A stretch of DNA of 64,000 bases from positions 52,702,001 through 52,766,000 of the forward strand of contig OZ076409.1 in assembly GCA_964187785.1 (NCBI GenBank), written 5' to 3'. A program made the translations under genes and the position numbers. Each line of letters begins with the position of its first letter. The first letter of the stretch is position 1. This stretch comes from Amphiscolops sp. MND2022. Taxonomy: Eukaryota. The notes below the pieces were generated by a model. The model was not told the origin of the DNA. It searched no databases and saw only the letters and a list, made by a program, of their open reading frames with translations. Below are positions 1 through 40,460 of the stretch, in pieces.

Positions 1-2146
1 CCCTTTGTGACTTTGATTGGGGGGAAGAGAGAATGACTGTAAGTACTACCTTTTCGCTTTACTTACAAACTCCCCCTTTCGAATTTAGTTAGGTTCTCAA
101 CTCATTCCCCTTTCCAGGCCATATTCCAGCATCTCTTCAATTGCAGCATGCATGACATTGCAGACCACATCTCTTCCTCGCAGTTCTTCGCTCTGGAATT
201 TGAGGATGAAGGAGCTAGCCGCTTCATGTCACTCAGGTACTGGAAGGGTCAACACTTGTGCAGGGTCGTCATCTGCCGCAGCGGGTTGCCCAGTACAGAT
301 CTCACTGGCGAGTTAGGTTCTTTGGCCCGCCTGCTCTCGGTGGTCTCAACGAAGGCAGATATTGTGGCCTGTTCCGGATGCCCTTCTGAATTGATCCGAC
401 ACTAGATGAACTCCCGACCTCTTCCCGAGCTGTCCAAAGTTGCTTCCGATTCAGCCAACTGAGTTTACCCAAATTGATGCACAAAAGCAGTTACAGTGTT
501 TTCGGGCATCTGGACTTCTTCTCAGTGTTACGAGGTCTGGTTATCTCTTTGGGTGGATCTTCTCAAGAAGATTGGGTGCAACGCAGTCCTGAATTAGCCA
601 AGGTTAGCAAAAATTGGGGTTTCAATGTTAGGCGCACTTCTGACTAGTTTGGGACGTTAGCCTAGGTCTTACAATGATTCTGAATTTTCTCCTTAGGCTA
701 TCTCTAAAAGTGACTTGGAGCTCTCCACCTTGCCAATTCTGTGTCAGGAGCTCATGGAAGAGTGGAAATTCGTAGGTATGAAATTCTTTAGGTAGGAATG
801 ACACAGGCTTACTATTGTTTCCTGTTATGTTCTAGGTCCAGAGTTTTGAGTGGTCGCTCATCTGTGATGAGTTTTTCCTTGTCAAGCTGGAACTCTTCTA
901 CCACCTCGTCAGCGATTGTTAGTATCACAAGGTGGACTAATTTGTCTTGTTGAGACTAGTGGGGATTGTTCCTTTGTTTTTAGACAACTCCAGTTTTGTA
1001 AACAATCTGCAATGTAGACGAGACTCGTCCTTCTACCTTTTTGGAGAAATAGCCCGGTACATTTATCGGCTCTGCTTCCGCTGTTATTCTCCCGACACTA
1101 TCCCGCTAGAAAATTCATGGGTCCTTCTCTTGAATTTCCAGACCAGCGAGGGGACCTTCATGCCAGCGGACGAGTTCCTGACCCGGCTGAAGATGACCAA
1201 TAAAGTTGCCAAATCTTGCAAGCAGAAAGCGGAAGATGTGCATTCTGGCAAGAAGATTGACAGGGCTGCTGTTCAGAAGACCGCCACTACCATTAAGAAT
1301 GATTTCGTCCGGGACACTCAATCCTACTTGCAGTATCTGATTGGAACAGTCCTTCGACAAGCCGGCCTTTGCTCTAACCTCGTCAGGGGGCTTGCTGCCT
1401 TTGACCCTCACATTATGGTGCACAGGCCTACCGAAGTAGCTCTCCGTCATTTTGACCTCTTGTACCGTACCTTCCAGCTTCGATCTTGGGTTAGCTCTGC
1501 AAACGAGTCTGCCTGTCGAGACGAGTACGTGGAGTTGCTAGATCAACTTCGTGCCGCCTCTCTACCTTCCTTTGATGTCACCCAGGGTTCTCCGGATCTG
1601 ATTGACTTCCTCATCAACCTTGCTTTTATGCAGGAGCACAGTCACTTGCTGTACCTATTCAAATTGAGCTGTTTGTGTGTTACCTCTAACAGTCCTCGTT
1701 ATCCGGTAGTAACTGTGGGGTCCCTCAGCACTTCAAACTATCAAAGCAGGCTCACTGACGTAGTTTTACCCGTGCAGAGTTACCTGTCTGGAGTTCCTGA
1801 CTCTGTTGTTTTCTGTAGCAATGAGTCCAATCTGAGTAAATTCTCTCTTCTTTCCGCCTCATTCGGTCGATCGGCCTTATCCTCCTCCTATGACCCCTGG
1901 ACATTCGTTGATGAGTTTGGCAGGGGGAAGATCTACAAGACCTTATTGACGACGTATCGTTCTGCACTTTCCGGACTGGGGGAAGAAGTTGGAGACCCTC
2001 ATGGGAATGAAACTTCTACCTTTGGAGAGGCACCTGCTGTAGTACCCCCTAGTGATCGCAAGCGAAGACGGATGGAGAAGAGCAATTCGATGTCAAGGGC
2101 CTCTTCTGTCGTAGAAGAATCTCCTGCTGGCACTTCTAAGGATTAA
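1..2146 (+). pseudogene. 3' part of spliced antisense accessory gene of element A (hAT-transposase-like, homolog of B gene); last exon ORF 947-2146
   Basis: GT-AG introns 39-117 and 603-696 keep frame; peptides align with the B gene (RRDSSFYLFGEIARYIY/RSDYSFHFYTEVCQFVY, GLAAFDP/GFYAFSP, LFKLSCLCV/VFKLCCLVV, YDPW/FDPW); lesions near 400 and 920-945. Confidence 0.8.
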
Positions 2147-2357: not shown

Positions 2358-3454
2358 TTAGTATCTGAAGTCTTCTGAGTAGTTTGGGTTAGGGTTAGGC
2401 CTGAGAATATATTTCCTTCCTCTAGGGCTCAGACTTTCATTTCTAGCATCGTTTTCAGATATTTCGGGCACGATAATATCATCCCCCTTTTCGGAGAACT
2501 TTGTGCATCGTTTTCATTCGTCAAATTTCTTTCTGAAAGAATTTCATCATTTTTTGGTCTTTCATCCGTATTCGGCAAAGTTTTTTCTTGACTTTTGGGG
2601 TGACCGGCCGGATTCGGCCAATCAGATTTGCTGTTGCTAGCCGCTTCACTAGCTTCATTCCTTTTTGTGACGTCATGATTTAATCTTTCATTCCGGCTCC
2701 GCGCCGCGTGGTCAGCGTAGTTTGTTTCGTCTCTCGTGATTATGTAATCCGCTTCATTCTCGTCTACGTCACTGTTACTCGGTTCTGCCGGATTCGGTTG
2801 TTTGCCATTCGGCAAGCTAGTCGGAATAGGATCATGTCCTCGTGTAATAAGCTGCTCGCCAAAGTCAGTTTCCTTGATATATTATATATGATTATATATA
2901 TGATTATATAATAAGTCATCTTGCGGAATAACAATTTCTTCGTCAGGCTGTAGCTGCTGTTCTTGGAAATTGTCCTCAAGAGGCTAATTAGGGACAAACT
3001 TTTTAACGCGAATTCGATGCAGTATTTGAGTTTTGTTTGTGTTGATTCGTCGTACAATATAATTTTCGTTAGGTAAGACCGTTTGGACTATAAATGGTCC
3101 AACCCAGCGATAATCGCGGAATGGAATCTTTGATCCTTGATGATCTGACTTCGGCTGTAGGACAAAGCAGTAATCATTCTCCTTTAGTGGAGCAGCTTTT
3201 GCCTTGCGATCATAGTATTCTTTGTACTTGATGTAGGACTGCATAATACTTTGCTTCGTTTTGTCAATCACGTTTTTCGTCCGATTTTGTCTTTCTTCAG
3301 CAAATTCGGTTGTTGGATTGACTTGCTCGTTTGGATTGTTTCCAAGCTTGTGGTCGAGAATATTATATGGAATTCTTCCGTGGAATACTCTCGTCGGTTC
3401 ACAACCGATGCTGGCGTGACAACTAGTATTATGATTCAGTACTGCTAATGGCAA
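2358..3454 (-). pseudogene. pol: Element A integrase C-terminal region and tail (frameshifted)
   Basis: ORF 2984-3454 with WVGPFIV...NYIVRR...LHRIR (GPY/F-type); tail ends RKYILRPNPNPNYSEDFRY*, matching B KYNLLSNPKPNANPDFR. Confidence 0.85.
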
Positions 3455-3469
3455 GTATTCATGCCATTG

Positions 3470-5248
3470 TCAGCGATATTCTCCACATGCCATTTTTAGA
3501 TTTGTTTTCAATGAGGCATGGGTTCGCTCTAATTTCCCAATTGTTTGCGGGTGTTTTGTTGTTGCGCATTTGAGTGTTATGCCCAAAATCTGCGTAATCT
3601 CCGCAATAATTGTAGAAGTAAATGCAGTACCTTTGTCAGTGATGAGTGTTGTAGGTAAATACGCATGTTTGGTCATAATGTCAATGAGCGCTTTTGCTAC
3701 ATTGATCGCTGACGCGTCCGTAAGAGGATAGGCAAACAAATATCTAGAGAATACATCAATTGCTGTTAGGACATTTTCATATCCTCCACTTGGAGGAAGA
3801 TTCGGCAATAGGTCGATCTGCATGGCGTCCTCAGGTCCAAGGTCCCATTCGGGCAAGTTGAGTAATTCAGGCGTAATTGTTGCATTGGGGACTCGTTTGT
3901 CCATTGCACATTCTGCACACCCTTCTACCCATTTTTTGACGTGTTTAGCAATGCTGGGGTAGTAATACCTCTGTCGAATTTCCTGCAACATTTTTGAGAT
4001 ACCAGGATGTTTATGCGCTGTCCCATGGAGGGACTGAAGCAATTCCAGGAGTAGGTGTTGCGGGAGCAGAATTTGATGGTATTTGACATTCCCTATTTCG
4101 TCAAAGTATTGCCTTGTCAGGATTTCGTCCTTAAGTACAATCCGTTCCAGGTTGTTTGCGTAATGTCTGTATCGGGCATCCTCTTGTAGTAAGTTCTCCG
4201 AATACTCTTCATGAAGGAGTTTTGCCTTTAGTTGTTGTAGTACTGCATCTTTGGATTGCTCGATGATGATTTGGTTCGTTTTCCTTAATCGGTCTTGTGT
4301 ATCAGGGTGTTGTTTGACTAAGTTTGTTGACAGAGTTTGTATTGTAACCGTGGGCTCATCAACAGCTGGATTCTTTCTGATTGCTTCTTTTCTTGCCCAG
4401 TATTGTTCCTCTGTCTCATCGTCGTCATTAGTGTAGAAGATTTGTTCTTCTTGTGTGACCCCTGCAGATTGGACGTTAATTTCGATTGGTAACGTTTGGA
4501 CGTCTTCACGAATTTCCATCACCAATTTGTCCTTCGGATCTGCTTCCAATGGGGACAAATAGTCGGCAGCTGTATTTTGTGCCCCTGGGATGTGTGCTAT
4601 GACAAAATTGAACTGGATGACATAATCACACGCGTTCCACAGGGCTGGGGGTATTATTTTTGTTTGGAAAAATATCGTGACAGCTTTGTTGTCCGTAAGG
4701 ATGATGACTGGTTTCGGCGCACCCCAGAAGATATGTCCGAATTCTTTGAATGTAAAATAAATTGCAAGGAATTCCTTGGCATAAATTGACATTTTGATCT
4801 GTGCTGGGGTGAAAGTTTTTGATCCATATGCGACTGGTGCATACGATTTTCTGAGCGACGTAAATTTCTGGCTTGGGTCGTCTTCGATTAGGACCGCGTA
4901 CCCGGCTGCACCAAAACTTGCATCAGTCATTAGTGCTATTTGCTTGTTTGGAATGGGTTGCTGTAGGTCCAACTCGCAACATTTGTCTAGTGCTCTGTTA
5001 ATTTCTTCGAATTGTTGGACTAATTCTTTCGATACTAGGACCTTTTCGTCACTTTTGAGCATCTTGTAGAATGGAGCAAGGCGTTCGGAGAGTCTTGGGA
5101 CATAATTCCTGTAGTAGTTTAGGAATCCCAAATATCGTTGTAAAGCCTTTTTCGACTTCGGGAATTTGGTCTTTTCCAGAAAGTTTTGCATGTTCTGTTT
5201 CTGGGGTTTGACGCCTTGTGTTTGACGCCAAATCAATTTCTTTTGCAC
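3470..5248 (-). CDS. pol: Element A pol fragment: RT thumb, RNase H, integrase zinc finger and core
   Basis: LGFLNYYRNY, LMTDASF, YAKEFLA, TDNKA, H-x5-HPG...CAEC, QIDLL, LITDKG, GKLERTH motifs. Confidence 0.95.
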   Translation of the reverse strand: MQKKLIWRQTQGVKPQKQNMQNFLEKTKFPKSKKALQRYLGFLNYYRNYVPRLSERLAPFYKMLKSDEKVLVSKELVQQFEEINRALDKCCELDLQQPIPNKQIALMTDASFGAAGYAVLIEDDPSQKFTSLRKSYAPVAYGSKTFTPAQIKMSIYAKEFLAIYFTFKEFGHIFWGAPKPVIILTDNKAVTIFFQTKIIPPALWNACDYVIQFNFVIAHIPGAQNTAADYLSPLEADPKDKLVMEIREDVQTLPIEINVQSAGVTQEEQIFYTNDDDETEEQYWARKEAIRKNPAVDEPTVTIQTLSTNLVKQHPDTQDRLRKTNQIIIEQSKDAVLQQLKAKLLHEEYSENLLQEDARYRHYANNLERIVLKDEILTRQYFDEIGNVKYHQILLPQHLLLELLQSLHGTAHKHPGISKMLQEIRQRYYYPSIAKHVKKWVEGCAECAMDKRVPNATITPELLNLPEWDLGPEDAMQIDLLPNLPPSGGYENVLTAIDVFSRYLFAYPLTDASAINVAKALIDIMTKHAYLPTTLITDKGTAFTSTIIAEITQILGITLKCATTKHPQTIGKLERTHASLKTNLKMACGEYR

Positions 5249-7130
5249 CGAAGTGACATTTGTGCATTGTTAACTTAAGGCCTGCATCCTGAATGCATTT
5301 GAACGTAGCTCTCAGGTTCGTCATGAGGTGGTCAACATCATTGGCTACGATGCCGATATCGTCCACATACTGGGCACACTGATCCGCTTTAATGACTTTA
5401 TCAAGGTGTTCTCTCATGAAACTCGAGAATGCGGATAGTGACCGGCTAAGGCCTTGTGCCAATCGTCTGTAAGCGAATGTGCGACTGGCAAAATTGAAAG
5501 CCAACATTTCTATTGAACGTTGGTTGGCCATTGGTAGGCAGTGGTATGCCTGCGAGCAGTCCAATTTACAGAACAGTTTTTTGCCTGCTAAGTGCTGGGC
5601 AGCATCGACTAGTGTACTGACGGGGTGATTATTGTTGATATAATCATCTGAGATAAGGTTGTTGATTTTTCTCAAGTCAACCAAGAGTCGGAGTTTCCCA
5701 TTCGGCTTCTTTTGTGCGAATATTGGACTTGCATATTTCGAAAATGGCAGTGTAGTTATTATGCCATATTTGTGTAATATGGCTAATTCAACTAGGATGT
5801 CCTCCTTCAAGTTGATAGGAGCTGGAAGGCTTTGACTATAGGCTGGGGAATCGTCCTTAGGCGTCAATTTCACCTTGAATTCCTCGTTCATGCCTATATT
5901 AAATCGGTGTCGTGCAAAGATGTCATGGAATTCCACTAACAATTCCTCAATTTTCTCCTTTTCTTCAGGAGTAAGGGTGGAATCTTTCCAGTCAAAGTTT
6001 TCTAAGAATTTTGCACGCGATTCTGCATCTGTAGTGGGGTCGAGTGTCTCTAGGTTCTGTAGGGCCTGTAACTCGCGTAGGATTCGTTTTTGTATAGGTG
6101 TGTGTTCCTCAGGATTTCCAGGATTTTCTGGAGTTGGGAACCAATAATTTTCGGAGTTTTGTGGATTTCTATTGGTCTTGATGAGACTGCTGACATAATG
6201 GGCTGCTTGCTCCTGGTCATTCTGCAAAAGGTGCCAGGTTGATGCCGGATCTACCGGTTTGACATACTTCATCTGTTCTGGCGTCATGACTGAGAAATTG
6301 GCAATATGAAGTCCCTTTTTAAGTTTATAAGGATGGTCTGTGAAATTATTCACAGGTATGGATATACTGCCGTCATTTAGAGTGACCAAGGCTGGGCAAA
6401 ATGTGATGTCGCCTTCTTCATGTAGAAGGTCGCTCGGCTGCCAAATCCCAGTAACCGCATTCTCAGGATACAGTAAGGAATTGGTCCTAATTAGGACTCT
6501 GTCGTTTGGCGGAATTGTTATTTCAGTGGGGTTGAGAATCGGTTCTAGTACGTTGGAGTATTTGTGGTCAGCTGTTTTAAGTTGCATTGAAAAGAACGGG
6601 AAGTTCAGAATTCCTTGTCTCATATCCAGAACTGTATGATTTCGCTGAAGGAACATCAGTCCAATAATCGGTCCTGTCAAGTGTTCCATTACTATGAAAA
6701 ATTCGTGGAATTCAATGTCACCAACTTCAAATTTGAGCTCTATTGTACTCTTGGGAGTTTCCAGTTGCCCATTAGCGACCATGATTTGGAAATTTGGAGG
6801 TGGACCTTCCCGGATGACAGATTGTGGAGATAAAAGGCGGATTTTCCGGAGGTCCATTTCAGGGATTGCACTGGACAATGCTCCAGTGTCTATAAGTCCA
6901 TCAATGGTCAATTCCCCAAAGTCCATTGGGAAATAAAGCATGCGTTTGTTGCATTTGAGATTAATGTTGGTTGACAGGGGTATACAGTCTGGTTCACCAT
7001 CTCTGGTAATGAGTACATTTTGGAATTGTTTCTCGTCTAATAGTGATTGTGGTATGGTGTCGGTAGTATTTTCAGGATTCTCGGTTCCCAGAGGGTTTGG
7101 GAACACTGGGTGGTTTGTACCATCGTTCAT
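5049..7130 (-). CDS. pol: Element A pol fragment: aspartic protease and reverse transcriptase
   Basis: LIDTGA protease site; LRLLVDLRKIN, KLDCSQAYH, LAQGL, YVDD; frameshift near 5240. Confidence 0.95.
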   Translation of the reverse strand: MNDGTNHPVFPNPLGTENPENTTDTIPQSLLDEKQFQNVLITRDGEPDCIPLSTNINLKCNKRMLYFPMDFGELTIDGLIDTGALSSAIPEMDLRKIRLLSPQSVIREGPPPNFQIMVANGQLETPKSTIELKFEVGDIEFHEFFIVMEHLTGPIIGLMFLQRNHTVLDMRQGILNFPFFSMQLKTADHKYSNVLEPILNPTEITIPPNDRVLIRTNSLLYPENAVTGIWQPSDLLHEEGDITFCPALVTLNDGSISIPVNNFTDHPYKLKKGLHIANFSVMTPEQMKYVKPVDPASTWHLLQNDQEQAAHYVSSLIKTNRNPQNSENYWFPTPENPGNPEEHTPIQKRILRELQALQNLETLDPTTDAESRAKFLENFDWKDSTLTPEEKEKIEELLVEFHDIFARHRFNIGMNEEFKVKLTPKDDSPAYSQSLPAPINLKEDILVELAILHKYGIITTLPFSKYASPIFAQKKPNGKLRLLVDLRKINNLISDDYINNNHPVSTLVDAAQHLAGKKLFCKLDCSQAYHCLPMANQRSIEMLAFNFASRTFAYRRLAQGLSRSLSAFSSFMREHLDKVIKADQCAQYVDDIGIVANDVDHLMTNLRATFKCIQDAGLKLTMHKCHFGAKEIDLASNTRRQTPETEHAKLSGKDQIPEVEKGFTTIFGIPKLLQELCPKTLRTPCSILQDAQK

Positions 7131-7144
7131 CTGCCAGTTTTCAA

Positions 7145-7582
7145 TTAGTGCCCGTGTTTCTTGTTGTGAGTGATTGGAGGGTTCTCGTGGGCTGTTTTAT
7201 TGTAGAGCTCGATGTCGTCTAAAACATACTGGAATTGCAGGAGGTCCTGGTTATAGATCTCTGTATCCCAATAGGGATCTCTGCCATAATCCGGGTCGAT
7301 GTATGTTGGGTTGTAATCATCGATAAGGGGAATGGGCCTGAACCGAGTTCTGAAGGTGGTTGTATAATCTGGGTCCCAAACAGGAATTGGTTTCTGGAAC
7401 AAATGGGTGTTATTGTAGGTAATGACGGTGGCTTTTTCCATCTGCTGCTGCCAGACAACAGAGGGATAGCCCATCAATTGCTGATTGTATTGATGAAAAG
7501 TTTTCGTTGGAGGATCCGACCTGATGTATTGGCGGACGTATATGAGTTCGCTATATTGGAGTCGTGGCAAAGTTAGTTTTTT
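7145..7582 (-). pseudogene. pol: Element A pol N-terminal segment entered by -1 frameshift
   Basis: -1 frame from the AAAAAAC heptamer reads KLTLPRLQYSELIYVRQYIRSDPP, homologous to B KLITPRLRFGETVDARAYSPEDP. Confidence 0.7.
7573..7582 (-). promoter_or_regulatory. -1 ribosomal frameshift site A AAA AAC followed by gag stop TAA (element A)
   Basis: TCAAAAAACTAA on the minus strand, identical in element B; the -1 frame opens into the pol-proximal ORF. Confidence 0.75.
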
Positions 7583-8685
7583 GACTCATTATTGGAAGAT
7601 GAGGATTGGGAGTTTGATGACGTTTGTTTGTTCTGAGGCTTCTGGGCCTTTGGGTTGGGCTTATTGTCAGTTGAGTCCTCAGGCCTAGTGCGTTTGGGTT
7701 TAAGATGCGCACCTGCACCTTGCCAACATCTTTCTTCCGGGTGGTTCTTTTAGCCACAAGTGCCACACTCCGGATATGTTTTCTTTTGAGTCGACTTGCC
7801 TTGTTGGGCGTCTTTTTCTTTTTTTTTTCAACTTTTCTCAGTCCTTGACCATGTGGCCCTTTTCCTTGCAGTAGTTGCAGGTGATGTCCGACATTTGTCC
7901 AGTGGACAGAGGCGTTTTGGGCTTAGTGGTTGAGGAGGTCATTGTTGCCATCGGTAGATCGTCTGACTCCTCAAGGGCGTTAAGCTCCAGCTCTCTCTCC
8001 AAATGAGCAACTATCTCATCATATGAGCCATTTTCTAGCCTGGCCATATTGACTGATCTTTTTAGTTTTGGTGGCAGTTTTGCGTATAGCAAACTGTCAA
8101 TCATTTTCTGCGCATGGTCTCCGAATGCCTTTTCTGCCCCTTGATTTAACTCTTCAAGGAAGTCAGGCAATTTCATCGTATTGGGATCAAAGACCAGACG
8201 GTGCCAATTGTGTTTGGCAGTCGCCTGGGACTCAGGTTTGACGTATTTCCGTCGGAAAATGACTAGTACGTCTTCAACAGTTTGACGATTTGTTGAGCTG
8301 ATATTTCGGAATGTTTGGAGAGCATTCTTCCTCAATAGTGAATGAAAATGGTTAATTTTCATTTGCTCAGTCATTTCTGGCTGCATCTTGATCATGGTAT
8401 GGAAAAGATCTTCAAACAGCTCAAATTTCTCACTTTTGCCGTCGAACGTCATAGTATTTGAGTTGACTGGACGTATTGTGAGTTGCTGGGCTGTCGGTCT
8501 ATTCTGCATCGTAGTCAAGACGTCTGCCAGTCGAGTGATGGTGTCAGGGCCAGCAGCCGTAGCAATTCTCTCCTGCGCTGGGATCGTCGTATCGAGGTTA
8601 ATGTCCTCATAGGACCTGTCGAGATGATTCCTTGATGAGATTCGTCCTGTGAGAAACTCAGGAACTTGGTTTGGAGATTCGTTGT

Positions 8686-8697
8686 CTCCTGTCACCA
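8686..8697 (-). promoter_or_regulatory. Primer binding site TGGTGACAGGAG (element A)
   Basis: TGG-starting 12-mer directly adjacent to the LTR end; identical in B and C. Confidence 0.9.
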
Positions 8698-10648
8698 TGT
8701 CATGACCAATCAGGTCAGGGTATTCATCATTTGGTAGGCTTTCATCCTGTCCTTCTCTCAAGCCGTTCTTTGCGTTTAGGTTTCGCTGAACTTCGGAATT
8801 TAGTTCAGGTCTCTCGGACGGAAAGTCCCATCCTTTTCTGGTCCCGTGTCCTGATCCGGCCATAATAACATTTTGAATTTGAGGAAGTACTTGGGTACTT
8901 AATGCATCACTTATGGCCCTCTGTATTTGGACATTCACAGAATTCATCATCTCATCCATTTCTCGTGAGATACGAGAGTTTAAATTGCTGGACAACCTAT
9001 TTATTTCAGCGCTAGAATTACCTGTGACTGAATTTCGGTCACATTCGGTGTTCATCCCTGTGTCAATATTTCTCTGAGATCTGTTCATGTTCTCATTTCC
9101 ATTTTCAGATTCATTACTTACAGAACTCCTATACCTTCCAGGTAAGTTGCTATTCAAGCTGCCTTCCCTTTCCCTCGTACTGAAATGACTCTCACCTAAC
9201 ATTATATCTAAGTTCTCGATATCAGATAACATTTCGTGTCCTCTTGACTTTCTTTCTTTCTTCTGTTTTCTAGTTGTAGGCATTGAGACAGATCTGGGTC
9301 GAATATTTCAATTATCAGAACCGGAAAACGGTATTTCGTTATAGGTTTGCAACAAAGATTATTTTCAACTGATTGTAAAGAGCAGAACATAAGATTGTGT
9401 CTGACCAAGGAAGTAGCACCTATATATACTGCCTCGGGCATGACATACATAGTTCGAATACTAAAAATGTGATGACCACATTCCGAGAGCACCTGATTTT
9501 CATAATTTTACAAACATCAAAGTACCGCTAAAATGTGATCGGAACAGTCACACGACCATTCAAATTCTTACTTTGACCTCACTAATAAACATTTGAAAGG
9601 CACGCAGAGCATCAAAGAACATCATATAAAATGCACAAGCCGCTCATATTCAAGGAATGCCAACAATCTCGTGCCGGCACGTGCCCCGTTATCAGACAGG
9701 ACTGACTATAAATCAACATTATTACATGCTATTGTACATGCTAATTTCTATGAAATATTGCCACAGATTGCACAGGTTAGTTGGTGAAAGTGGCCAGAAA
9801 GGTCTTTCAGACCGGCGCATGCAGTAACATCATAGATTAGCATCGATCACACTAATTAGTTTAGAGAACTACATGAATGTTTATAACACGATTACAAACA
9901 TACATTACATTTAAAGTACATGAACTCATCAAACAAAACATCCGGTTATTAATTTGAATAGGAGCCTTAACCGGCTACTACCCGGTTGGTTCTGGCAATG
10001 CGAAACAATAATCAGGCAATTGGCCTTATTCGGCCCAGTATCAAGACAAAGCACTAATTACTAAATTGAACATTTAACCAGTGTTAAAGCACAACTATTG
10101 TATTAGTAATCAACACTCAAAGGTATTACAATGTGTTTCTTTCATTACTGCTTCGTGGCCGGAATCGGCCGTTTGACTAAAGCACCGATAGATAAAAACA
10201 GAGTTCTGTCGAGTGGCCTTAACCGGCCATTTGTCGAATACAGCAATAATAGCACAAGGATGGATAAATATGATTGGCTAACGAGGTGAGCTCAAGTGAC
10301 GTCTCCGGAATCAGAGTTGCGTTCACTTGAACTCGTTTCCTTTACGCTATTTAGCCGTGTTTGCTTCAATTATATTATTGTACTGCACTTCAAGCTTTGC
10401 AAATATCAGCTCACTATTTGAATCTTTCAGTTGTTGGCATTAACGGACTAATACTGGCAAAAGGTGTACAGTAATTAAAAAATTGGCAACAGTAACAAAT
10501 CTAACTTACAAAACTAGCAAATAAACATAAGAGTTTGAGTTTTAAACGTTTTTACTTCTCTAATAGATTGGTAGGGTGCCGGTCGCTATCTCTTGCATTT
10601 CTGCTGAAGTCGTGATTCTAGTGCCATCACAGGCGGCAGCCTGCGACA
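8698..10648 (-). repeat. 5' LTR of element A (~1.95 kb)
   Basis: Inner edge fixed by the PBS; outer edge inferred from TGTCGCAG resembling the TGTCACAG start of B/C LTRs; TATATATA at 9421-9428; partner LTR not in window. Confidence 0.65.
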
Positions 10649-12771: not shown

Positions 12772-14332
12772 TGTCACAGTCCGCGCCCGGACTGGATTGA
12801 ATTAAAAGCAAACTAAAACTAATATAGGTCACCGCTTCGCCAATACGATTGAATTTGCGTCGCGACTACGCTACGTCACAGCTATGGCAGCTAGCTAGAA
12901 TTTCATTCCAAAATGTGACGTCAGCATGTCGTCTAACTTGGCAGCTAGTCAGAAATTCATTCCAAAATGTGACGTCAGCATCTCGTCTAACTTGGCAACT
13001 AGCTAGAAAGTATTCTAAATCAGACGACGATATGACGTCACAGCTATGGCAGCTAGCTAATTTTCATTCCAAATTTACGTCCACTATATCGGCGGACTAA
13101 GTCTAATACTAATACGTACGTCCAAGTTACGTCGCAAATCCATCAAAATAGCTGTTTTATTCCATCCAAAACACCACATTGACGTCCACGCTACGTCCAC
13201 TATAATGGCGGACTAAGTGTAATACCAAATTTACGTCCACTCTACGTCCCAATTTTATAAAATTAGGCGTTTTAGTCTGTATTAAGTTTAAAAGAAGCTT
13301 TATTTTACTACGGTTAAACTAATCGAAGCTAAAATATGAATCAACGTCAACACTACGTCGCAATTTAACTAACCAAACCAAATTTTGAATCTACGTCAGT
13401 ATTGCGTCGACTAAGATTCAATTCGAACGGAATATGGTATTTAAGCCAGGATTTTTCAGATTTACTTAAAATAACAGTGTTTTGATACGATTTACATTGA
13501 AAAGTCACAGTTTATATTCAACTTGTGTTAACAAAATGAAGTCCAAGCTGGATTTTAAATGTACGTTTTGACTACCTAATTTCATAAGTTCATATGCTGT
13601 TTGACGATGTCACGTCGTCTTTTATTGTTGCTCAAAGGTGTTGCTCCTAACTTTAATCAGATAAATATTTATCAATTGTTGAAATATATAATTGTTTAGC
13701 CTCATGTAAATCAGTCACTCTCTTAGCATCACCAAATTGCCTAAATCAAGATAATTAGTCATAATTTTCTTCAAGTGGAAATTCAAAATCAGGTATTAGT
13801 TGTTCACGTCAGCGTCATCTCCGCGTCGGTTTCTTACGAACCAAAGCAGAAAAACGGGGAAGTATTTCCGGTTTGACAGACTGAAGTAATATCTACTTCC
13901 TGCTTGGGAGGAAGCAAAAGGACGCCGGAATGAAATGATATGATCATGATTGATGTCTAATACTAGATTAGAATTGCCGTGTCTTAAAAATTGACGAAAT
14001 GCTGACGAAGATCAAAGTTTTCCCGCAAAATTACAGGAAGTGACTAATATCTCGATAGAAATTAAAGTACGCGAGTATGAACAGATGATGCTAGGAGGGT
14101 ATATATAGCTTGTACCTGTAAACTTATTCATTCAATTTCTGATTCAATCTGCTGTCTTGTATCAAATTCTACTTTGTTTTGTTAAAACAATTACTCTGCA
14201 AACTTCAATTCAAAATTGATAAATCCGAAAATCTTTTCATCAAGAGAAGCTAGAAAAGAAGAATGACCTTCAAAAAAGCAACAACAATAATCAGAAATGT
14301 ACAGAACAACGACCCTAACAGGAGTCGTAACA
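12772..14332 (+). repeat. 5' LTR of element C
   Basis: TGTCACAG...CGTAACA; direct repeat of 16077-17637; 54-bp internal repeats from 12914; TATATATA near 14100. Confidence 0.95.
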
Positions 14333-14344
14333 TGGTGACAGGAG
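14333..14344 (+). promoter_or_regulatory. Primer binding site TGGTGACAGGAG (element C)
   Basis: Directly follows LTR CA; identical to A and B. Confidence 0.9.
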
Positions 14345-14466
14345 TTTTGGACCTTTCAACAAATGTACCCAAGAAAACCTCAGCTTAAACTAACGTCCAA
14401 AGAGCGTCCCTGCATTTTGCGGAAACTCTTCGTCCCAGAAACGAAGACGAACATACACTAATTGAG

Positions 14467-14592
14467 CAACGCAACCCAAACGGCAAATGGAGACTACTTG
14501 TTGACCGACTGATGATAAACGAGTTAAAATTCGACGACTACACCAACAACACTCAACCCGTCAGTACATCGTCAGATGCAGTCCAACACCTG
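14467..14592 (+). pseudogene. Reverse transcriptase remnant in element C
   Basis: QRNPNGKWRLLVDRLMINELKFDDYTNNTQPVSTSSDAVQHL aligns with A QKKPNGKLRLLVDLRKINNLISDDYINNNHPVSTLVDAAQHL. Confidence 0.85.
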
Positions 14593-15015
14593 CCGAAGAC
14601 ATCGTTTACCACAACACGAGGTTCCAAAAGCTGGCAACATACCCCTGGGGCGTTACCTTTGCCCAGAGTCGGGTGAATTAGCTCACATCGGTAAGTATTA
14701 AAAAAAAGAAAAACTAGACTCTTCCTGAGGCCGAGATGTGCGCTCGAAAGATGACAAAGACGTAATCACTGAAGCACACATTCCCGAATCGACTAGTCAG
14801 AAAATCTAAGCTATGAACATACAAAAGCAGAAAAGGCCTATCTGCAGTTTCGTATGATTCAGAAAAGCTTAATGGAACGCGGAATGTTACAAACCTAAGG
14901 GTTGCTGAAAAACCAGCGCGTTGGCGTCACTAAGACGCACATCTCCCTCAGAGAACAAAAATGAGTCCTATTATCGTCTTGCAGACCATGACCTTTTAAG
15001 ATCATATGTATCTTA

Positions 15016-15175
15016 AAATGACCGGGTTATAACAGCCCATATGCAAAGACGACGCAAGATTGACGTCGCAAATGACCGGGTTATAACAACCCATATACAA
15101 AGACGACGCAGTATTGACGTCGCAAATGACCAGGGTTATAACAGCCCAATACTGATACGACGTCATTATGACGTC
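15016..15175. repeat. 54-bp tandem repeat, about 3 copies, containing TGACGTC
   Basis: AAATGACC(G/A)GGGTTATAAA-like unit starts at 15016, 15070 and 15124. Confidence 0.85.
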
Positions 15176-15224
15176 AACAGTGACCGCAAAAAATTGAAGT
15201 TGGCTTATCGCTAACAAAAGACGC

Positions 15225-15500
15225 TGACGTCATCAAAACGGTGACAAAATCTAAAGTTGGCTAATTACCAACGAAATTGACGTCGGCATAACGTCGACAC
15301 AAAGGTTATCAGGGTTAAGAATTAATCCTATAATCTATAATGACGTCATCAAAACGGTGACAAATTCAAAAGTTAGCTATGCTAACGAAATTGACGTCAG
15401 CAAAACGTTGACAACTTTGGTCAAACGAATTAATTTAATTCGTGGCCAATAAAAACGGGACGTTGGCAAAACGTCAACACCTGGGACTATAAAGGAATTA
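15225..15500 (+). promoter_or_regulatory. TGACGT-rich putative internal promoter, homologous to B 27640-27910
   Basis: Colinear with the reverse complement of the B spacer; CCAAT at ~15446 and TATAAA at ~15488 upstream of the 15549 ORF. Confidence 0.6.
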
Positions 15501-15548
15501 AAAGACAGCTTCTACCACCTCCCAAAAAGTGCTATACCGAACTACAGA

Positions 15549-15752
15549 GTGGTACCGGAAATGTCACATTCCTCTGGGAAAGCGTACAACCAAAACAATC
15601 CTCTGTTCAGTTTTGACAACCCCACGAGATATCTTCGTCCCATGAGAGTGGCCCTGTCACAGTCCGCGCCCGGCCTGGATTGTGGTTGCCGAGAGGCGCA
15701 GTTTGGACGTGATCATGGATGCATTATGAAAACAGTTAGACTATCTTATTAA
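15549..15752 (+). CDS. Short accessory ORF with CGC...FGR.HGC motif, homolog of the C-terminus of B ORF 26746-27501
   Basis: RPMRVALSQSAPGLDCGCREAQFGRDHGC vs RPMTVALSQSAPGLGCGCLRVGFGRGHGC, with many synonymous differences. Confidence 0.55.
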   Translation: MVPEMSHSSGKAYNQNNPLFSFDNPTRYLRPMRVALSQSAPGLDCGCREAQFGRDHGCIMKTVRLSY

Positions 15753-16076
15753 ACTGAAATAAACTGTGACAAGTTAAAACCATCAAAATCTAAATTATGA
15801 ATGATTTCAGAACTTAAAACATTCCGAGATAGTTTCACACATTTCCGGACATGCGTAGTGATGACAGTAGAATTTTAATCATTTTCCTGCAAAATGCAAC
15901 CGAGACATATCATTGGAATTACTTGTCGCAAAAAGAACGAAACTACGTCAAAATTTAGGACTAAAGAAAACAAAAACAATTTGATAACCAATTAATTGAC
16001 GGTAAAATACTTCCCTAACATCATCTCTTTCATTTTATCAAGCCCCCGAGAACCATTCGTCCTATGAGAGTGGCCC

Positions 16077-17637
16077 TGTCACAGTCCGCGCCCGGACTGG
16101 ATTGAATTAATAGCAAACTAAAACTAATATAGGTCACCGCTTCGCCAATACGATTGAATTTGCGTCGCGACTACGCTACGTCACAGCTATGGCAGCTAGC
16201 TAGAATTTCATTCCAAAATGTGACGTCAGCATGTCGTCTAACTTGGCAGCTAGTCAGAAATTCATTCCAAAATGTGACGTCAGCATCTCGTCTAACTTGG
16301 CAACTAGCTAGAAAGTATTCTAAATCAGACGACGATATGACGTCACAGCTATGGCAGCTAGCTAATTTTCATTCCAAATTTACGTCCACTATATCGGCGG
16401 ACTAAGTCTAATACTAATACGTACGTCCAAGTTACGTCGCAAATCCATCAAAATAGCTGTTTTAATCCATCCAAAACACCACATTGACGTCCACGCTACG
16501 TCCACTATAATGGCGGACTAAGTGTAATACCAAATTTACGTCCACTCTACGTCCCAATTTTATAAAATTAGGCGTTTTAGTCTGTTTTAAGTTTAAAAGA
16601 AGCTTTATTTTACTACGGTTAAACTAATCGAAGCTAAAATATGAATCAACGTCAACACTACGTCGCAATTTAACTAACCAAACCAAATTTTGAATCTACG
16701 TCAGTATTGCGTCGACTAAGATTCAATTCGAACGGAATATGGTATTTAAGCCAGGATTTTTCAGATTTACTTAAAATAACAGTGTTTTAATACGATTTAC
16801 ATTGAAAAGTCACAGTTTATATTCAACTTGTGTTAACAAAATGAAGTCCAAGCTGGATTTTAAATGTACGTTTTGACTACCTAATTTCATAAGTTCATAT
16901 GCTGTTTGACGATGTCACGTCGTCTTTTATTGTTGCTCAAAGGTGTTGCTCCTAACTTTAATCAGATAAATATTTATCAATTGTTGAAATATATAATTTT
17001 TTAGCCTCATGTAAATCAGTCACTCTCTTAGCATCACCAAATTGCCTAAATCAAGATAATTAGTCATAATTTTCTTCAAGTGGAAATTCAAAATCAGGTA
17101 TTAGTTGTTCACGTCAGCGTCATCTCCGCGTCGGTTTCTTACGAACCAAAGCAGAAAAACGGGGAAGTATTTCTGGTTTGACAGACTGAAGTAATATCTA
17201 CTTCCTGCTTGGGAGGAAGCAAAAGGACGCCGGAATGAAATGATATGATCATGATTGATGTCTAATACTAGATTAGAATTGCCGTGTCTTAAAAATTGAC
17301 GAAATGCTGACGAAGATCAAAGTTTTCCCGCAAAATTACAGGAAGTGACTAATATCTCGACAGAAATTAAAGTACGCGAGTATGAACAGATGATGCTAGG
17401 AGGGTATATATAGCTTGTACCTGTAAACTTATTCATTCAATTTCTGATTCAATCTGCTGTCTTGTATCAAATTCTACTTTGTTTTGTTAAAACAATTACT
17501 CTGCAAACTTCAATTCAAAATTGATAAATCCGAAAATCTTTTCATCAAGAGAAGCTAGAAAAGAAGAATGACCTTCAAAAAAGCAACAACAATAATCAGA
17601 AATGTACAGAACAACGACCCTAACAGGAGTCGTAACA
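16077..17637 (+). repeat. 3' LTR of element C
   Basis: Direct repeat of 12772-14332; about 7 substitutions seen by eye. Confidence 0.95.
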
Positions 17638-20368: not shown

Positions 20369-20686
20369 TGTCAAGTTTTACCATCCGCCTCGCAAGGCGG
20401 GAATGATCGAATGGTGAGTCACGACCCTTAAGGTTCAAGTACCTGCTAGATGACATCGCACACACAACGCTTGATGCCGCACATTCATGTATCTGTTTGT
20501 GCGATACAACAGACAACTCTTGAATCCACACATTTTTGTTGACTGACAGGTACCTGTCGAGGTGCTATTTATACCCGATGCTGAACCACTTCTACCATCA
20601 ATTGCAATTGTAAATACATGAACCAACTCTGATCATAACTAATCAATCTCAATTCAGTTCTTCATTCCTACCCAACCTGTTTTGAA
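20369..20686 (+). repeat. Copia 5' LTR
   Basis: Direct repeat of 22909-23154 with an extra ~100-bp block. Confidence 0.85.
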
Positions 20687-20700
20687 GGTTATGGGCCCAG
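20687..20700 (+). promoter_or_regulatory. Copia PBS GGTTATGGGCCCAG (internal tRNA-iMet complementarity, as in Drosophila copia)
   Basis: Motif recognised from copia, directly after the LTR. Confidence 0.85.
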
Positions 20701-20759
20701 CAGCTTCCCAGACGACGCCATCTATTCAGCTGATCACAGCCTCACCAACGCAGATCACG

Positions 20760-22900
20760 ATGACGGCACCACGACACTCTCGACAAGAGAAGCTGCTGTT
20801 TAGTGGACGAGAAGATGACTTCCCACTTTTCTGGAGCAATTCGAAGCAAGAGTCTATGCCCTGGGACTTTCTGACTGCCTTCTGGACAGAATCAAAACAA
20901 AGCCTCAGAAAGATGTGGAGACGAATGACGAACGTGTCAAGCGAGAAGGGGAAGAAGCAGATCGAGCCAAACTACAGTACATGGTGTGGTGCGAGCTGGT
21001 TCAGTACCTTGACAAGGCAAGCATCAACTTCATCAGAGGGCACAAGCCGAATGGGACTGCAGCCTGGACAGTTTTGGCGAAAATTGATCAGTCCACTCGG
21101 CGCATGGCAAGACCTCTTTTGAGATGTTTCACGGAAGCAAGCCTGACCTTTCATCTTCACGTGTTTGGGTGCCAGTCGTTTGTGCTCAACGAAGTCAGGA
21201 AGAAGCTGGACAGCAAGGCACGGGAAGCTAATCTACTGGGATACTCGGGAAACTCTAAGGCATATGTGGTGGCCTCAACAGACGGGTCAGAGACAAGGGC
21301 ACCAAAGGTCTGGGTATCACGAAACGTCAACTTCAACGACGATGCATTTCCTTACCAACGTGGTTCTGCAGTCATCCAAGAAGAGAGCGAGAACGATGAT
21401 GCATCTCAATCGGATGTTGATGATGGAAATCGGTGTTAGATGAACAATGCGAGGCCACATCTACGAAAACCCATGCAATCCAGGACGAATCAGAAGATAA
21501 CATCAATCCAGATGAAGGGACACCCAATGTTACAGACAGTACAGCACCAGTGCAGCAGACGACAACCAGATGTTCGGGAAGGACTCGAAGGGTCCCTCAA
21601 CACTTCGGCGACTATGTGACAGGGAAGGAATTGGAGAACCTGGCACTTCACTGTGATGCTTTGATTTCAAGCGGCCTTTCAAGCAATACAGCAGACGCAC
21701 TTGCGGATCCCAACTGGACACCAGCGATGGACAGAGAATTCAAATCACTGAAAGAAAATGGTGTCTGGGAGCTAGTCAAGCCACTATCAGGACGAGGCAT
21801 CATCAGCGGAAAGTGGCATTTTGCTCATAAACTAGATGACAAAGGAAACGTGGTAAGGGTACAAGGCGCGATTCGTGGCACGGGGGTTCACTCAGACAAC
21901 AGCCCTTGCTTACTGACTCTGACGAGGAGTGGTCACAAGTGCTGGATACTGATCTGGGTGGATGATATTTTTTACGGGTCAACTGACAATCAATTTACCA
22001 CGTGGTTCATTGACAAGATGAGTGAGCGGTTTAACATTGGCGGAAGCGGTCCTCTGACGTGGTTCTTGGGATTTTTCCTTCAAGTGTGGTGACGGTTCGC
22101 TGACAATGAAGCATCAGGGGTATGTGAGCACCCTACTTCGCAAACACGGAATGGGCAAGTGCAAGGCAGCTTCAACACCACTCGCAGACAAGCTGGAGCC
22201 GACGAAGGACCAGATGCCAGAAGACGGATAGGATGAGCAACAGGAAATGTTGAGACATGACTACAGAGGCCTAGTGGGTAGCATTGCTTACCTCTCACTG
22301 TCCACTCGACCTGACATGGCTATCCCGGCCCACCTACTTTCTCGATTTCTTAGCAACCCTGGATTTGCTCACTGGCGAGTAGCGAAGCACGTGTTACGCT
22401 ACCTCAGAGGCACAGCTGACGTACTTTCATGAAGTGTGATGATACAGGCCTAAATGAATACATGGATTCAGACTATGCCAGCTGCAAGGACAATAGAGGA
22501 AGCATCACTGGTTTCTGCTTCAACGTGGGTAGTGGGGCAATATCGTGGGCTAACAGACGACAAACGTGTGTAGCGATTTAAACCACTGAGGCAGAACTTC
22601 ATGCCTTGAGCGAAGCCGTAAAGGAAGCGGTGCTTTCGCGTGGGATTCTGGACACTCTTGAAGAAACCATAGCGACGACTTTGTTCACGGACAGTCAATC
22701 GTGCTTAGCATTGGCAACCAGAGATGACAACAGCGCAAAGACGAAACACTTTGCAACTCGGATGGCTTATGTTCGGGAGACAGTAAAGAATCAGTCGATT
22801 GATCTGAAGTTCATTGCCAGTGGTGAAAATTGCGCTGACATTTTCACGACGTGACTGGGTAAGACGAAGACCCAACAACACATTGCTCAGCTGTTGGCAA
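20760..22900 (+). pseudogene. Fragmented Copia gag-pol (gag N-terminus, IN tail, partial RT, RNase H)
   Basis: HVFGC...KKLDSKA...LGYS...KAY; WTPAMDREFKSLKENGVWELV; IWVDD; YRGLVGSIAYLSLSTRPD; TDSQS; ADIFT; protease and IN core deleted. Confidence 0.9.
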
Positions 22901-22908
22901 TGCGGGGG

Positions 22909-23154
22909 TGTCAAGGTTTACCATCAGCCTCGCAAGGCGGGAATGATCGAATGGTGAGCCACGACCCCTAAGGTTCAAGTACCTGCAAGATGACATCGAA
23001 CAAACAACTTTTGATGCCGCACATTCATGTACCTGTTTGTGCGATACAACAGACAACTCTCATGACAACCTCAGACAACAGACAATCTCAGATACCGCAC
23101 ATTTTTTGTTGATTCTGAATTCAGTTCTTCATTCCTACCCAACCTGTTTTAAAA
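22909..23154 (+). repeat. Copia 3' LTR
   Basis: Preceded by GCGGGGG; followed by TSD AAGAA. Confidence 0.85.
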
Positions 23155-24495: not shown

Positions 24496-26855
24496 TGTTA
24501 CGACATATATCCTGGTCGTTTTGTGTTGAACTTATCCTAACTGATCTAGTAGGGTGTAGAAACTCCTAGTTTCATTTTCCATCCCCTCTTCAACATTCTC
24601 TCTTGTTTGAGGTTTCAAGAGCTTCATCATTTCCTTTTGGGATTCAATTAGGAGATTCTTAATCTGGGAGGTGATTTCCTCCTTCAGAGATGCTCTCAAA
24701 CTTTCTAGAAGGCTATTTTCAATCCTGGGGGATTTTGGTTTTGAAGGCCCCGCCGAACTAACGTCTTGTTCTGGAAAACAAGGATCCTCTCCTACTACTG
24801 GTGAAACGAAACCATCACTTACATTTTCACTATTTCCCTGTTGGAAGTTCTTTCTCTTCTGACTTCGAGTTGTAGACATTTCAATGGAGAAAAGATTTTC
24901 TGATGGGTTGAATTTCTTTTCAAGGTTTTCAACAAAGTTGAGTTAAAATGAGGTTGAGACAAGCAAGTTTGAAACAACTGATTATCGCAAGAGGCAAAAG
25001 ACTGAGTCCCTTAATCATCAAATTTCACCGTATTTATACCTTCCCAGCATCATTTGATCACGACTATAATCCCTAATTTTCCTCGAACAATTAGTCATTT
25101 CCTGTTTTACCGATGGAAAAATCACGAAGTTCCCAAATTTGCGTCGACATTTCGTCAATTTTTAAGACACGGCAAATTTAAACTAGCATTAGTCATCAAA
25201 CATGATCATATCATTTTATCCCGGCGTACTTTTGCTTCCTCCCAAGCAGCAAGTAAATATTACTTCAGTCTGTCAAACCGGAAATGTTTCCCTGTTTTAC
25301 TGCCTTGGTTCGCGGGAAATTGACGCTGAGATGACGCTGACGTGAACAACAAATACTTGATTTTGAAATTCGGTTTGATCAAAATGCTATGACTAATCAC
25401 AAAGCAGGATTATTTGAATGATGCTAAGACGAATTTTTAATGAATTTGGACTCATTCTTTTGTCGGGAAAAGAATTAAAACTCATGGTATTAAAATAATA
25501 CACCATTAACAAATTTGTCATGTCGCGATAAGTGCGACAGATTTCACAAGAGTAACAGCAACATTTGTTTGATAGCAACAGCAACATAATGAGTTTAATG
25601 AATAGCAACATTGAACTGGTATTTAAATATGATCACAATCATAATTATAGAATAGCATCTGAGATCGTCGGGTACAAAAATGCAAAAGATATGAAAATAC
25701 ATCTTTTGTACAAAATACATTTTAGTTGAAGACGTACACTGTGACTTCCTGTTTGTTCTGCTATGAAATTTCGTAATAAAAATAGCCTATGCGAGGAAAT
25801 TCCCTTATTATTGAAAACACATGACGATTAATTGACGTGGATTTGAATTATCCTATGCGTGCCAAAAATATACCTAAAGTCAGAACTTTAAATCGCGGAA
25901 TCTTTGCAATACACTTGTTTTACAATCTGAAATAGTCTGCAATTATCTCTCCCTAGGAAATAACGGCGTTAGTGCGACGAACACTTGGCTGAATTCAGCG
26001 AATTCATTCCTTTTATTCAATTTCATAAACTTGTCAACGTCATGTTCACGAGTTTTCTTGGCAGAATTTAAGCTTCATAAACTTGTCAACGTCATGTTGA
26101 CGAGTTTTCTTGGCAGAATAGAGATTTTGACTAGTTTGACGCAATGCTGACGAGTATTTTAGAAATGAGTCTCTCGCTAGCTGCCCGAGCAGTGACGTCA
26201 CAGCAGCGGTAAATTGGATTGATTTCTAGCAATGCTATTAGTTTAGGCGGATAATTGGAATGATTTCCTGGTACGCGTATGCGAGGCAGTGACGTCAATT
26301 GGTATACCTTCAAACTTGTCTGCGTCTTACTGACGACAAATATACATGTATTCTTATTTTCTCCGCTGCCGTGTTTACTCAGCGCAATATTGACGTCCTA
26401 AATCACACTAATTGCTATCCAAAGAGTAATTAAGCTGCCTTTCTAAGAAAAGTCTTAATCCTTTCGGTGTGCCTTCTCAGAGTATTTTCCATTTTAGATC
26501 TGATTGATGTTCTTTTTGAGAGATGACTTTGACTATGCTTTCATTTAGATTGGGCTGTGGTTTTCTTTTTTCTAAGCGTGTTTTAATTTAGTTTTCAGGT
26601 GGCGGATGTCATTGAATTGACGTGGCAAAAGCGTCTCAACCGGAAATGTAAGATTCAATTTAGCACATTCATTCTTTGTAACTAGTTTCATTTGAAATTT
26701 CCGTTGATCAGACGTAATTTTGTTTTCTTAGTCACAGTTTAATAATTAGTTTTGATAGTTAAAGTAAGTTTTTTCGAACCTCGCGGTGCAGCCGTGGCCT
26801 CTCCCGAAGCCAACTCTTAAACACCCACAACCCAGTCCGGGAGCGGACTGTGACA
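24496..26855 (-). repeat. 3' LTR of element B (contains gag N-terminal copy 24532-24879 and the end of the accessory ORF)
   Basis: Direct repeat of 40461-42790 with scattered substitutions and small indels. Confidence 0.95.
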
Positions 26856-27501: not shown

Positions 27502-27966
27502 CTTCTTTATTTGACTTCTCTCCTCTGCGACTGTTGATCGTATTTTAATTGTTCCACAATGAATTTCAGCTTATTTGGGATTAAGGAGAATATTGGGAAA
27601 AATCCCTCCATTCTGATTGGCTGTTCAATCATTTTAATCCTTTTAAACCTCAGGTGTTGACGTTATGTCGACTTTGCATTTTTATTGGCTTTAAATTGAA
27701 ATAATTTACTTAGCCAAACTTGTCAACGTTATGCTGACGTCATTTTCGTTAGCTGAGCTAACTTTCAGGGTTTGTCACCGTTATGATGACGTCATTGTAG
27801 ATTACAGGATTAATTTCTTAACCCTAGTGACCTTTTTGCCGACGTTGTGCCGACGTCAGTTTCGTTGGCAATTAGCCAACTTCCATTTTTGTCACCGTTA
27901 TCATGACGTCATTTTGTTGTTGTTTTCACGTCTTCTCTCGTTTCAGATTTCTTGCTAGTTTCGACA
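27502..27966. promoter_or_regulatory. Putative bidirectional promoter between two head-to-head accessory genes
   Basis: Spacer between ATG 27501 (-) and ATG 27967 (+); multiple TGACGT(CA) motifs, CCAAT boxes; conserved in element C. Confidence 0.6.
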
Positions 27967-32020: not shown

Positions 32021-32135
32021 TCAGGTTGAGAAAAAGAAAAGAAAGGAAAGAAAAAAATTCCCAGGCCGTAGTATTCCTATAATTGAAAATCGTCAGATCG
32101 GATCGGTCTGGACTCCTGATATTATCTTTTTCTTT

Positions 32136-40448: not shown

Positions 40449-40460
40449 CTCCTGTCACCA
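40449..40460 (-). promoter_or_regulatory. Primer binding site TGGTGACAGGAG (element B)
   Basis: Adjacent to the LTR edge where LTR-LTR identity ends. Confidence 0.92.

Follow-up and report, generated by a model that had tools for sequence, protein, structure and literature searches.

The window, by which we mean the whole 64,000-nucleotide stretch analysed (G000:C1:52702001-52766000 of the 1.07-Gb assembly of Amphiscolops sp. MND2022), holds two minus-strand Ty3/gypsy elements, A and B, both with protease, reverse transcriptase (RT), RNase H and integrase in gypsy order as identified by Pfam, and both with a plus-strand gene antisense to pol. Element A is complete at 16.2 kb, extends from window position -5586 to 10648 and encloses its antisense gene, with LTRs of 1951 bp that are 98.5% alike, have TG..CA ends and are flanked by a 5-bp target duplication (GCTCT). 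Its 5' LTR (8698-10648, minus strand) contains ~580 nt of gag and has its twin, the 3' LTR, at L011:4414-6364, while the gag-pol (2400-9282, minus strand) carries stops and frameshifts in the window copy. Element B spans 24496 to 42790 between a 3' LTR (24496-26855, minus strand) and a 5' LTR (40461-42790, minus strand) that are 95% alike with flanks ATCAT and ATCGT, and its gag-pol (32136-40908, minus strand) is broken by an internal duplication (34471-36817). This duplication is recent, 2.3 kb long and ~99% alike, and it copies the last antisense exon together with the end of pol.

Gag in these elements begins inside the 5' LTR, 394-598 nt within it among the A and B copies with a located start (8698-9282 and 40461-40908 in the window), such that the primer-binding site falls within gag coding sequence and the 3' LTR holds a second gag 5' end. 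The candidate primer-binding site is a TGG-starting 12-mer directly after the LTR that is common to all four clades of related copies (A-D). At the other end, no purine-rich tract occupies the 16 nt adjoining the 3' LTR in the copies examined, and a second small ORF reads through that position.

Further elements lie in the window. A plus-strand, internally deleted B-related element at 12772-17637, with 1561-bp LTRs that are 99.6% alike, is likely non-autonomous; what remains of its interior is a fragment of RT, the beginning of the antisense gene, the stretch separating the accessory genes and the terminal part of the small ORF. A plus-strand gypsy element at 55508-61356 has short 145-bp LTRs and no long antisense ORF, and served as the tree outgroup, while a degraded element at 20369-23060 has 152-bp direct repeats and ORFs that look copia-like by eye.

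Because both window copies of the antisense gene are damaged (A by a frameshift and a deletion, B by a non-canonical first acceptor), we worked out the gene structure from relatives, for which 100 ten-kb loci were fetched across identity bands with open frames favoured, and junctions were placed by scoring exon-end windows. In element A the plus-strand gene starts left of the window, with its ATG at L011:8109 (about window position -1892), and exon 1, which codes for a C2H2 zinc finger preceded by a long low-complexity N-terminus, ends at 1-38. The predicted intron J1 follows at 39-117 (79 nt, GT..AG, phase 0) and is found in clades A, B, C and D, leading into exon 2 (118-602), which codes for a predicted RNase-H-fold core and the start of a helical insertion and has a frameshift near 400 in the window copy. 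Predicted intron J2 (603-696; 94 nt, GT..AG, phase 0) occurs in clades A, C and D and is absent from B. Exon 3 (697-775) has 45 codons when intact and is shortened in the window copy by a ~85-nt deletion near 775 that also removed the next donor, leaving a remnant of predicted intron J3 at approximately 776-835 (phase 0; in all four clades, and precisely absent in 5/35 A-clade copies). Exon 4 (836-917) has 27 codons plus 1 nt in all four clades and is followed by predicted intron J4 (918-983; phase 1; likewise in all four clades, and precisely absent in 6/45 B-clade copies and in window B). Exon 5 runs to the stop codon (984-2146), coding for a predicted helical domain that matches residues 366-609 of the transposase Hermes and then a basic, serine-rich, NLS-like tail.

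In element B, also on the plus strand, the upstream part of the gene has approximate bounds of 27960-29633, ends with the zinc-finger exon and is damaged in the window copy. Intron J1 (29634-29751) has a GT donor and, in this copy, an AT acceptor. The exon at 29752-30372 corresponds to A exons 2 and 3, with 207 codons and no J2, and is separated by J3 (30373-30556; GT..AG, 184 nt) from a last exon (30557-32020) that corresponds to A exons 4 and 5 with J4 precisely absent. Compared with A, B has one extra residue downstream of the first intron.

Across the 100 loci, GT-AG ends were found in clade A (n=35) at J1 in 30, J2 in 28, J3 in 29 and J4 in 33 copies, in clade B (n=45) at J1 in 41, J3 in 44 and J4 in 35, in clade C (n=13) at J1-J4 in 12, 13, 13 and 13, and in clade D (n=7) in 7, 5, 5 and 6, with the remaining junctions either unplaced or having a non-canonical end. 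Exon lengths are constant (162 codons for exon 2 and 45 for exon 3 in clades A, C and D; in 38/45 clade B copies the two form one uninterrupted stretch of exactly 621 nt), and the introns between them range from 62 to >1000 nt, many not multiples of three. From these conserved junctions we infer that the antisense gene is spliced at J1-J4. J4 in clade C (L143-L155) is 371-1046 nt long and contains short tandem repeats in several copies.

An earlier note, made from the window's letters, had proposed that the two antisense proteins are distant homologues, and this held when the alignments were compared with shuffled sequences. The last exon of window A against B gave a Smith-Waterman score of 103 (shuffle mean 33.6, z=14.3, with 0/1000 shuffles as high) and a BLASTP match at E=3e-7 with 20% identity over 230 aa. 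Exon 2, compared as two halves, gave z=4.5 and 5.4 (2 and 1 of 1000 shuffles), and exon 4 gave z=3.1 (11 of 1000), while the shuffle test was not significant for the 26-aa remnant of exon 3. The five motif pairs named in that note (e.g., GLAAFDP/GFYAFSP, LFKLSCL/VFKLCCL, VQSYLS/VQSSVS, YDPW/FDPW) were found in the translations and matched in the family alignments. Its phase-0 intron, six codons after a Trp in both genes (39-117 in A, donor GT at 29634 in B), is likewise real, with the Trp invariant in 25/25 rows from four clades. A single shared intron position proved an undercount, however, since A and B share three at clade level: besides J1, these are J3 (about 776-835 in A, equivalent to 30373-30556 in B) and J4, which is present in 35/45 B-clade copies and absent from the window's B subfamily. 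The intron at 603-696 (J2) was correctly read as missing from B but is not specific to A, as clades C and D carry it too. The integrase tree joins B with C (support 100), which favours a loss of this 'extra' intron in B over its gain in A, although the weakly resolved root of the RT tree (support 29) makes a J2 gain in A+C+D possible. Intron gain and loss inside the element, also proposed, is borne out by the precise absences of J3 and J4 and the missing J2 of B. Extending the sequence leftward beyond the window recovered the 3' LTR at L011:4414-6364 as well as exon 1 of A with its zinc finger, so the LTR encloses the gene as had been anticipated.

Turning to the rest of the genome, searches with the last exon turned up 7597 and 6166 first-look candidates, and scores were computed for 131 and 142 of these, respectively; none of these figures is a copy number. 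Pol lay on the strand opposite to the antisense gene in 100/102 sampled copies: integrase was antisense at a nearly fixed distance in 82/82 A/B loci (the window's two included) and RT in 81/82, and pol was present in 18/20 C/D loci, although these loci were taken from top-scoring, mostly open-frame matches, so that the linkage is over-estimated for degraded copies. The other 2/20 C/D loci had no pol within 10 kb, one running directly into gag and the other having no long ORF downstream. LTR pairs surrounded the gene in 20/20 extended loci, with a perfect 5-bp duplication in 15 and LTR identities of 96.8-99.9%. One clade-D gene (L156, G000:C2:29320823-29330822) looks intact and has no pol or other long ORF in 5 kb downstream, and is either a deleted element or a free-standing copy.

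The gene also carries the mark of purifying selection that the earlier note had expected, with dN/dS of 0.06-0.13. Median values were 0.083 for exon 5 (5 pairs) and 0.059 for exon 2 (4 pairs) in clade A, and 0.113 (18 pairs) and 0.127 (11 pairs) in clade B, against 0.02-0.04 for pol, all taken from pairs with a synonymous difference of 0.1-0.6, which are few (4-18 per set) since most pairs are saturated. Together with the shared place, strand and exon structure in four clades, which fit the single ancient acquisition that had been suggested, we interpret the antisense gene as, with near certainty, an integral and selected part of this Ty3/gypsy lineage. Chance nested insertions, or a DNA transposon still mobile inside the retrotransposon, would accord with the nested insertions common in the window and with the two C/D loci without pol within 10 kb, one of which, however, leads straight into gag as an internally deleted element would. 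Such an origin is very improbable, as the earlier note had argued, given the same position, strand and exon lengths in four clades, the selection on the protein, the lack of conserved catalytic acids (see below) and the clade-level agreement of the trees.

The trees themselves separate two scales of inheritance. The split (A,D)|(B,C) is present in the trees of RT, integrase, exon 5, exon 2 and the zinc finger, each with 25-29 rows, and in none of the copies compared (60 for RT, 70 for integrase) did an A gene occur together with a B pol, counts that leave out 22 and 12 of 82, respectively, as broken or short. Within clades A and B, the patristic correlation between pol and the gene was r=-0.14 and 0.06 for RT and -0.13 and 0.21 for integrase, and few splits were shared (5/57 for RT, 7/65-67 for integrase). 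As the pol protein trees were poorly resolved, we compared the DNA. Synonymous-site differences were 4% in RT and 76% in exon 5 for the pair L065/L104, and 1.5% and 82% for L042/L140, with the reverse for L065/L067 (66% in RT, 8% in exon 5). Identity jumps at the 3' end of the antisense gene, and in the compared pairs the LTR, small ORF and gag go with pol rather than with the antisense gene (L065/L104: LTR 94%, gene 67%; L065/L067: gene 97%, LTR 82% over 25%). These discordant divergences mean that the antisense gene has been swapped as a block between near-identical gag-pol-LTR backbones. Vertical inheritance, put forward previously, and congruence of RT and accessory-gene trees therefore hold among clades A-D and not within A or B, where the gene is exchanged as a cassette.

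We accordingly rejected strict vertical descent within clades, given the low patristic correlations, few shared splits and reciprocal DNA divergences. Nor did gene type and LTR type show tight co-evolution, as the types reassort (L065/L104, L065/L067). The simplest cause of the block swaps would be template switching in the conserved flanks, the gene itself being too diverged for internal crossovers. Balancing selection on gene types is possible and is not needed for the swapping pattern.

To characterize the encoded protein, we evaluated its sequence and then its predicted structure. The protein has a long low-complexity N-terminus, a C2H2 finger, a conserved body and a basic serine-rich tail. 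Basic tails were seen in all clades examined, and the C, C, H and H of the finger are invariant in 25/25 rows, with a weak match to zf-BED (Pfam E 0.14-2.5; the best, 0.14, in 2/25). Pfam scans of the exons and 50 homologues gave no family above cut-off, including PF04195 and hATC, the PF05699 and PF14291 profiles gave no hAT sequence match, and exon HMMs against hAT ORFs of the same genome were not significant. Profile-profile comparison with 49 PRKRIR/Tip-type transposases gave a probability of 0.3, no better than decoys, and Ac-type hATs were likewise not significant. PDB sequence searches with three exon profiles returned nothing under E 0.18, the ESM Atlas gave no usable match, and a search for longer homologues found none, which is weak evidence. 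A profile search of 1.84 billion representatives returned 1243 proteins at E <=0.001, 150 of them listed, and the ten looked up are ENA entries. Three of the proteins had best own-genome matches of just 55%, 35% and 29%, and these three, though the genome search was incomplete, are probably from other organisms.

Structure prediction added to a hAT-like layout that had been noticed by eye beforehand. The exon-2 model (207 aa, pLDDT 80.5, pTM 0.50; other models 55-74) contains, in this order, three strands, one helix, a fourth strand and further helices, and the exon-5 model (306 aa) has pLDDT 78.7. For exon 2, the hAT transposase Hermes ranked first by Foldseek (E=0.047) and by VIA (2bw3, Z 6.6, 166 aligned, rmsd 11.6), and in the wide search came tenth (Z 5.2), tied with other RNase-H-like folds; among the chains listed there, it alone covered the full model (residues 1-207, against Hermes 152-353). 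For exon 5, Foldseek found nothing, and the wide search placed Hermes second of 48,161 (Z 5.0, 182 aligned, rmsd 8.3, 1-252 to Hermes 366-609). All of these scores fall in the tool's 'common' range (Z under 8, rmsd 8-12), with identities of 5-9%. A tenth and a second place, with consecutive ranges in exon order, are nonetheless unlikely by chance, at roughly 20 in 48,000 before allowing for the way long multi-domain chains are favoured.

The antisense gene thus resembles hAT transposases (Hermes 2bw3, 4d1q, 8edg) in its predicted order of C2H2 finger, RNase-H core, helical insertion and C-terminal part, and differs from them in its 5-9% identity, its lack of an hATC match and of conserved catalytic acids, and its place in a retrotransposon, hAT transposases being encoded between inverted repeats. 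On the strength of the models, we consider an origin from a hAT-type transposase probable. A donor of another kind is a less favoured alternative that we think rather unlikely: an RNase-H protein of Mutator, P or Kolobok type, or a host gene domesticated from a transposase, would have become an equally integral accessory gene with a role in integration-site choice or nuclear import. The weak Z scores speak for it, as does a match of the Mutator-type transposase 6xg8 to the core (Z 4.4, residues 4-107), and four or more introns would fit a host-like gene. Few eukaryotic transposases have solved structures, and Hermes may be the nearest stand-in for such a donor. Against this, no chain but Hermes matches the two exon models in order and along most of each, and an N-terminal C2H2 finger ahead of the core is the hAT layout.

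If the origin was of hAT type, catalysis has very probably been lost. Hermes uses the catalytic acids D180, D248 and E572, as described in PMC2533014. Mapping these by register from the aligned ranges rather than by residue-level superposition, we found no acidic residue shared by the clades where D180 and D248 would fall, at the ends of strands 1 and 4, and no conserved Glu after the KL motif where E572 would be expected.

A second accessory gene accompanies the first. In element B it is an acidic ORF in pol sense (26746-27501, minus strand) that has a SIM-like motif near its N-terminus and ends inside the 3' LTR, and in element A it lies at L011 about 6280-7057 (minus strand). This small ORF of 227-342 aa was present in 20/20 extended loci (one N-terminally short). 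It reads in pol sense towards and usually into the 3' LTR and is arranged head-to-head with the antisense gene, lying ~1.0-1.2 kb upstream of the latter's ATG in loci in which this codon could be placed. BLASTP joined the versions of A, C and D as homologues and gave no match between these and the B version. Near the N-terminus, all four clades have a hydrophobic-then-acidic motif (VIYISSDEE, LIDISSSSEEE, VIDISSETEE, IIYISSDEEE), which has the pattern of a putative SUMO-interacting motif. The small ORF of A, C and D also has a CxxC segment. Tandem repeats with TGACGTCA cores occur between the two accessory genes at 27720-27913 and 15225-15413 and are candidate promoter elements.

Bringing these observations together, the reading that we slightly favour as a whole is that of a dead hAT-type transposase kept by the retrotransposon as a predicted nuclear DNA-binding helper. 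An intron-containing hAT-type element would have inserted once, antisense, between pol and the 3' LTR, after which its transposon ends and catalysis were presumably lost and selection kept the finger and the scaffold. The gene would have its own promoter, head-to-head with the small ORF, and its transcript would be spliced. Introns lying opposite to the genomic RNA strand are not spliced from that RNA, and so, facing away from it, the antisense introns survive retrotransposition. The precise intron losses would then come from recombination with cDNA of the spliced message, and within-clade movement of the block from the template switching suggested above. The finger and dead scaffold may bind DNA or chromatin such that, with the SIM-bearing small protein, the element stays expressed.

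What the product does for the element is less firm, with a regulatory or anti-silencing role having close to an even chance. A more specific and rather speculative version is a two-gene counter-silencing module under one bidirectional promoter, in which a dead hAT-type DNA tether would act with a SIM protein engaging SUMO-dependent silencing, and dozens of diverged gene versions would be swapped in an allele-like manner in an arms race with the host. With the same origin, the protein might instead be a brake on its own element (copy-number control) or a poison of host hAT transposases through oligomers. This we hold to be somewhat less likely still: the whole dead scaffold is kept rather than the finger alone, hATs are abundant in the genome (2215 candidates, 150 scored), and numerous, deeply diverged gene types have been maintained on the same backbones, all as a brake or poison would have it, but the carriers are very high in copy number and recently active, and, since the protein shows no sequence similarity to the resident hATs sampled, mixed oligomers are less probable.

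The anti-silencing idea has a parallel in the VANC proteins of Arabidopsis VANDAL transposons, which are described as acting through family-specific tandem motifs (PMC6719617). Like VANC as described there, the antisense product is a transposon-borne accessory protein that diverges much faster than the core enzymes and may have a counter-silencing role. Unlike VANC as so described, gene type and LTR type reassort freely here, and a gene type untied to LTR type argues against tight recognition of a co-evolving LTR motif by the antisense protein.

In Ty3/gypsy elements of plants and fungi, antisense ORFs (aORFs) occupying the interval from pol to the 3' LTR have been described, such as maize Grande gene23, rice RIRE2, Retand TRP28/PF04195 and Botrytis Boty (PMC7264820, PMC11963269), and Grande gene23 has its own promoter (PMC7264820, PMC11963269). 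The gene described here is like these, as they are presented in those papers, in position, antisense orientation, presence in most copies and a predicted nuclear/DNA-binding role. It is unlike the plant aORFs in having no TRP28 (PF04195) or other Pfam match, and in combining a zinc finger, a predicted RNase-H fold and a partner ORF. It also differs from Retand in its four conserved predicted introns, the word 'intron' having 0 occurrences in the main text of the Retand paper. Among retroviral antisense genes, HTLV-1 HBZ is unrelated in sequence type to the antisense gene. HBZ (PMC11963269) and the extra ORF3s of bdelloid rotifer LTR retrotransposons, which are env-like, GDSL or DEDDy proteins (PMC5408684), are nonetheless similar to it, as far as these sources describe them, as captured or antisense accessory genes downstream of pol in animal LTR elements. 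The rotifer case differs in that 'transposase' and 'intron' have 0 occurrences in the main text of PMC5408684. Literature searches, covering chiefly openly accessible papers rather than repeat databases or supplements, did not turn up any animal gypsy lineage with an antisense gene that contains introns and derives from a transposase.

The origin and function of aORFs in LTR retrotransposons are described as unknown in PMC7264820, where the plant aORFs are said to have no similarity to other TEs, leaving a nested-TE origin unsupported for them, whereas the predicted fold here points to such an origin. The Amphiscolops lineage offers an aORF with a traceable source, likely a DNA transposase, and its four clades, many recent insertions and candidate copies in the thousands are material for tests of function. 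If hAT-derived, the gene would be a rare instance of a mobile element being tamed by one of another kind. Spliceosomal-type introns can, on this evidence, last very long in a reverse-transcribed element when they face the opposite way, and the precise losses, which can be mapped, make the lineage a small-scale natural experiment on intron loss driven by reverse transcriptase. From the cassette swaps, a retrotransposon family can behave like a population undergoing recombination, in which the enzyme backbone is held in common and the accessory types are exchangeable.

Other arrangements were seen among the carriers. At L016-L018 (G000:C7, about 31.78-31.81 Mb), an A-type copy whose gene is 97% alike in protein has unrelated 684-bp LTRs and gag outside the LTR, an apparent LTR swap. 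At L025-L027 and L134, the repeated ends are ~4.4 kb long, which suggests tandem or LTR-sharing arrangements.
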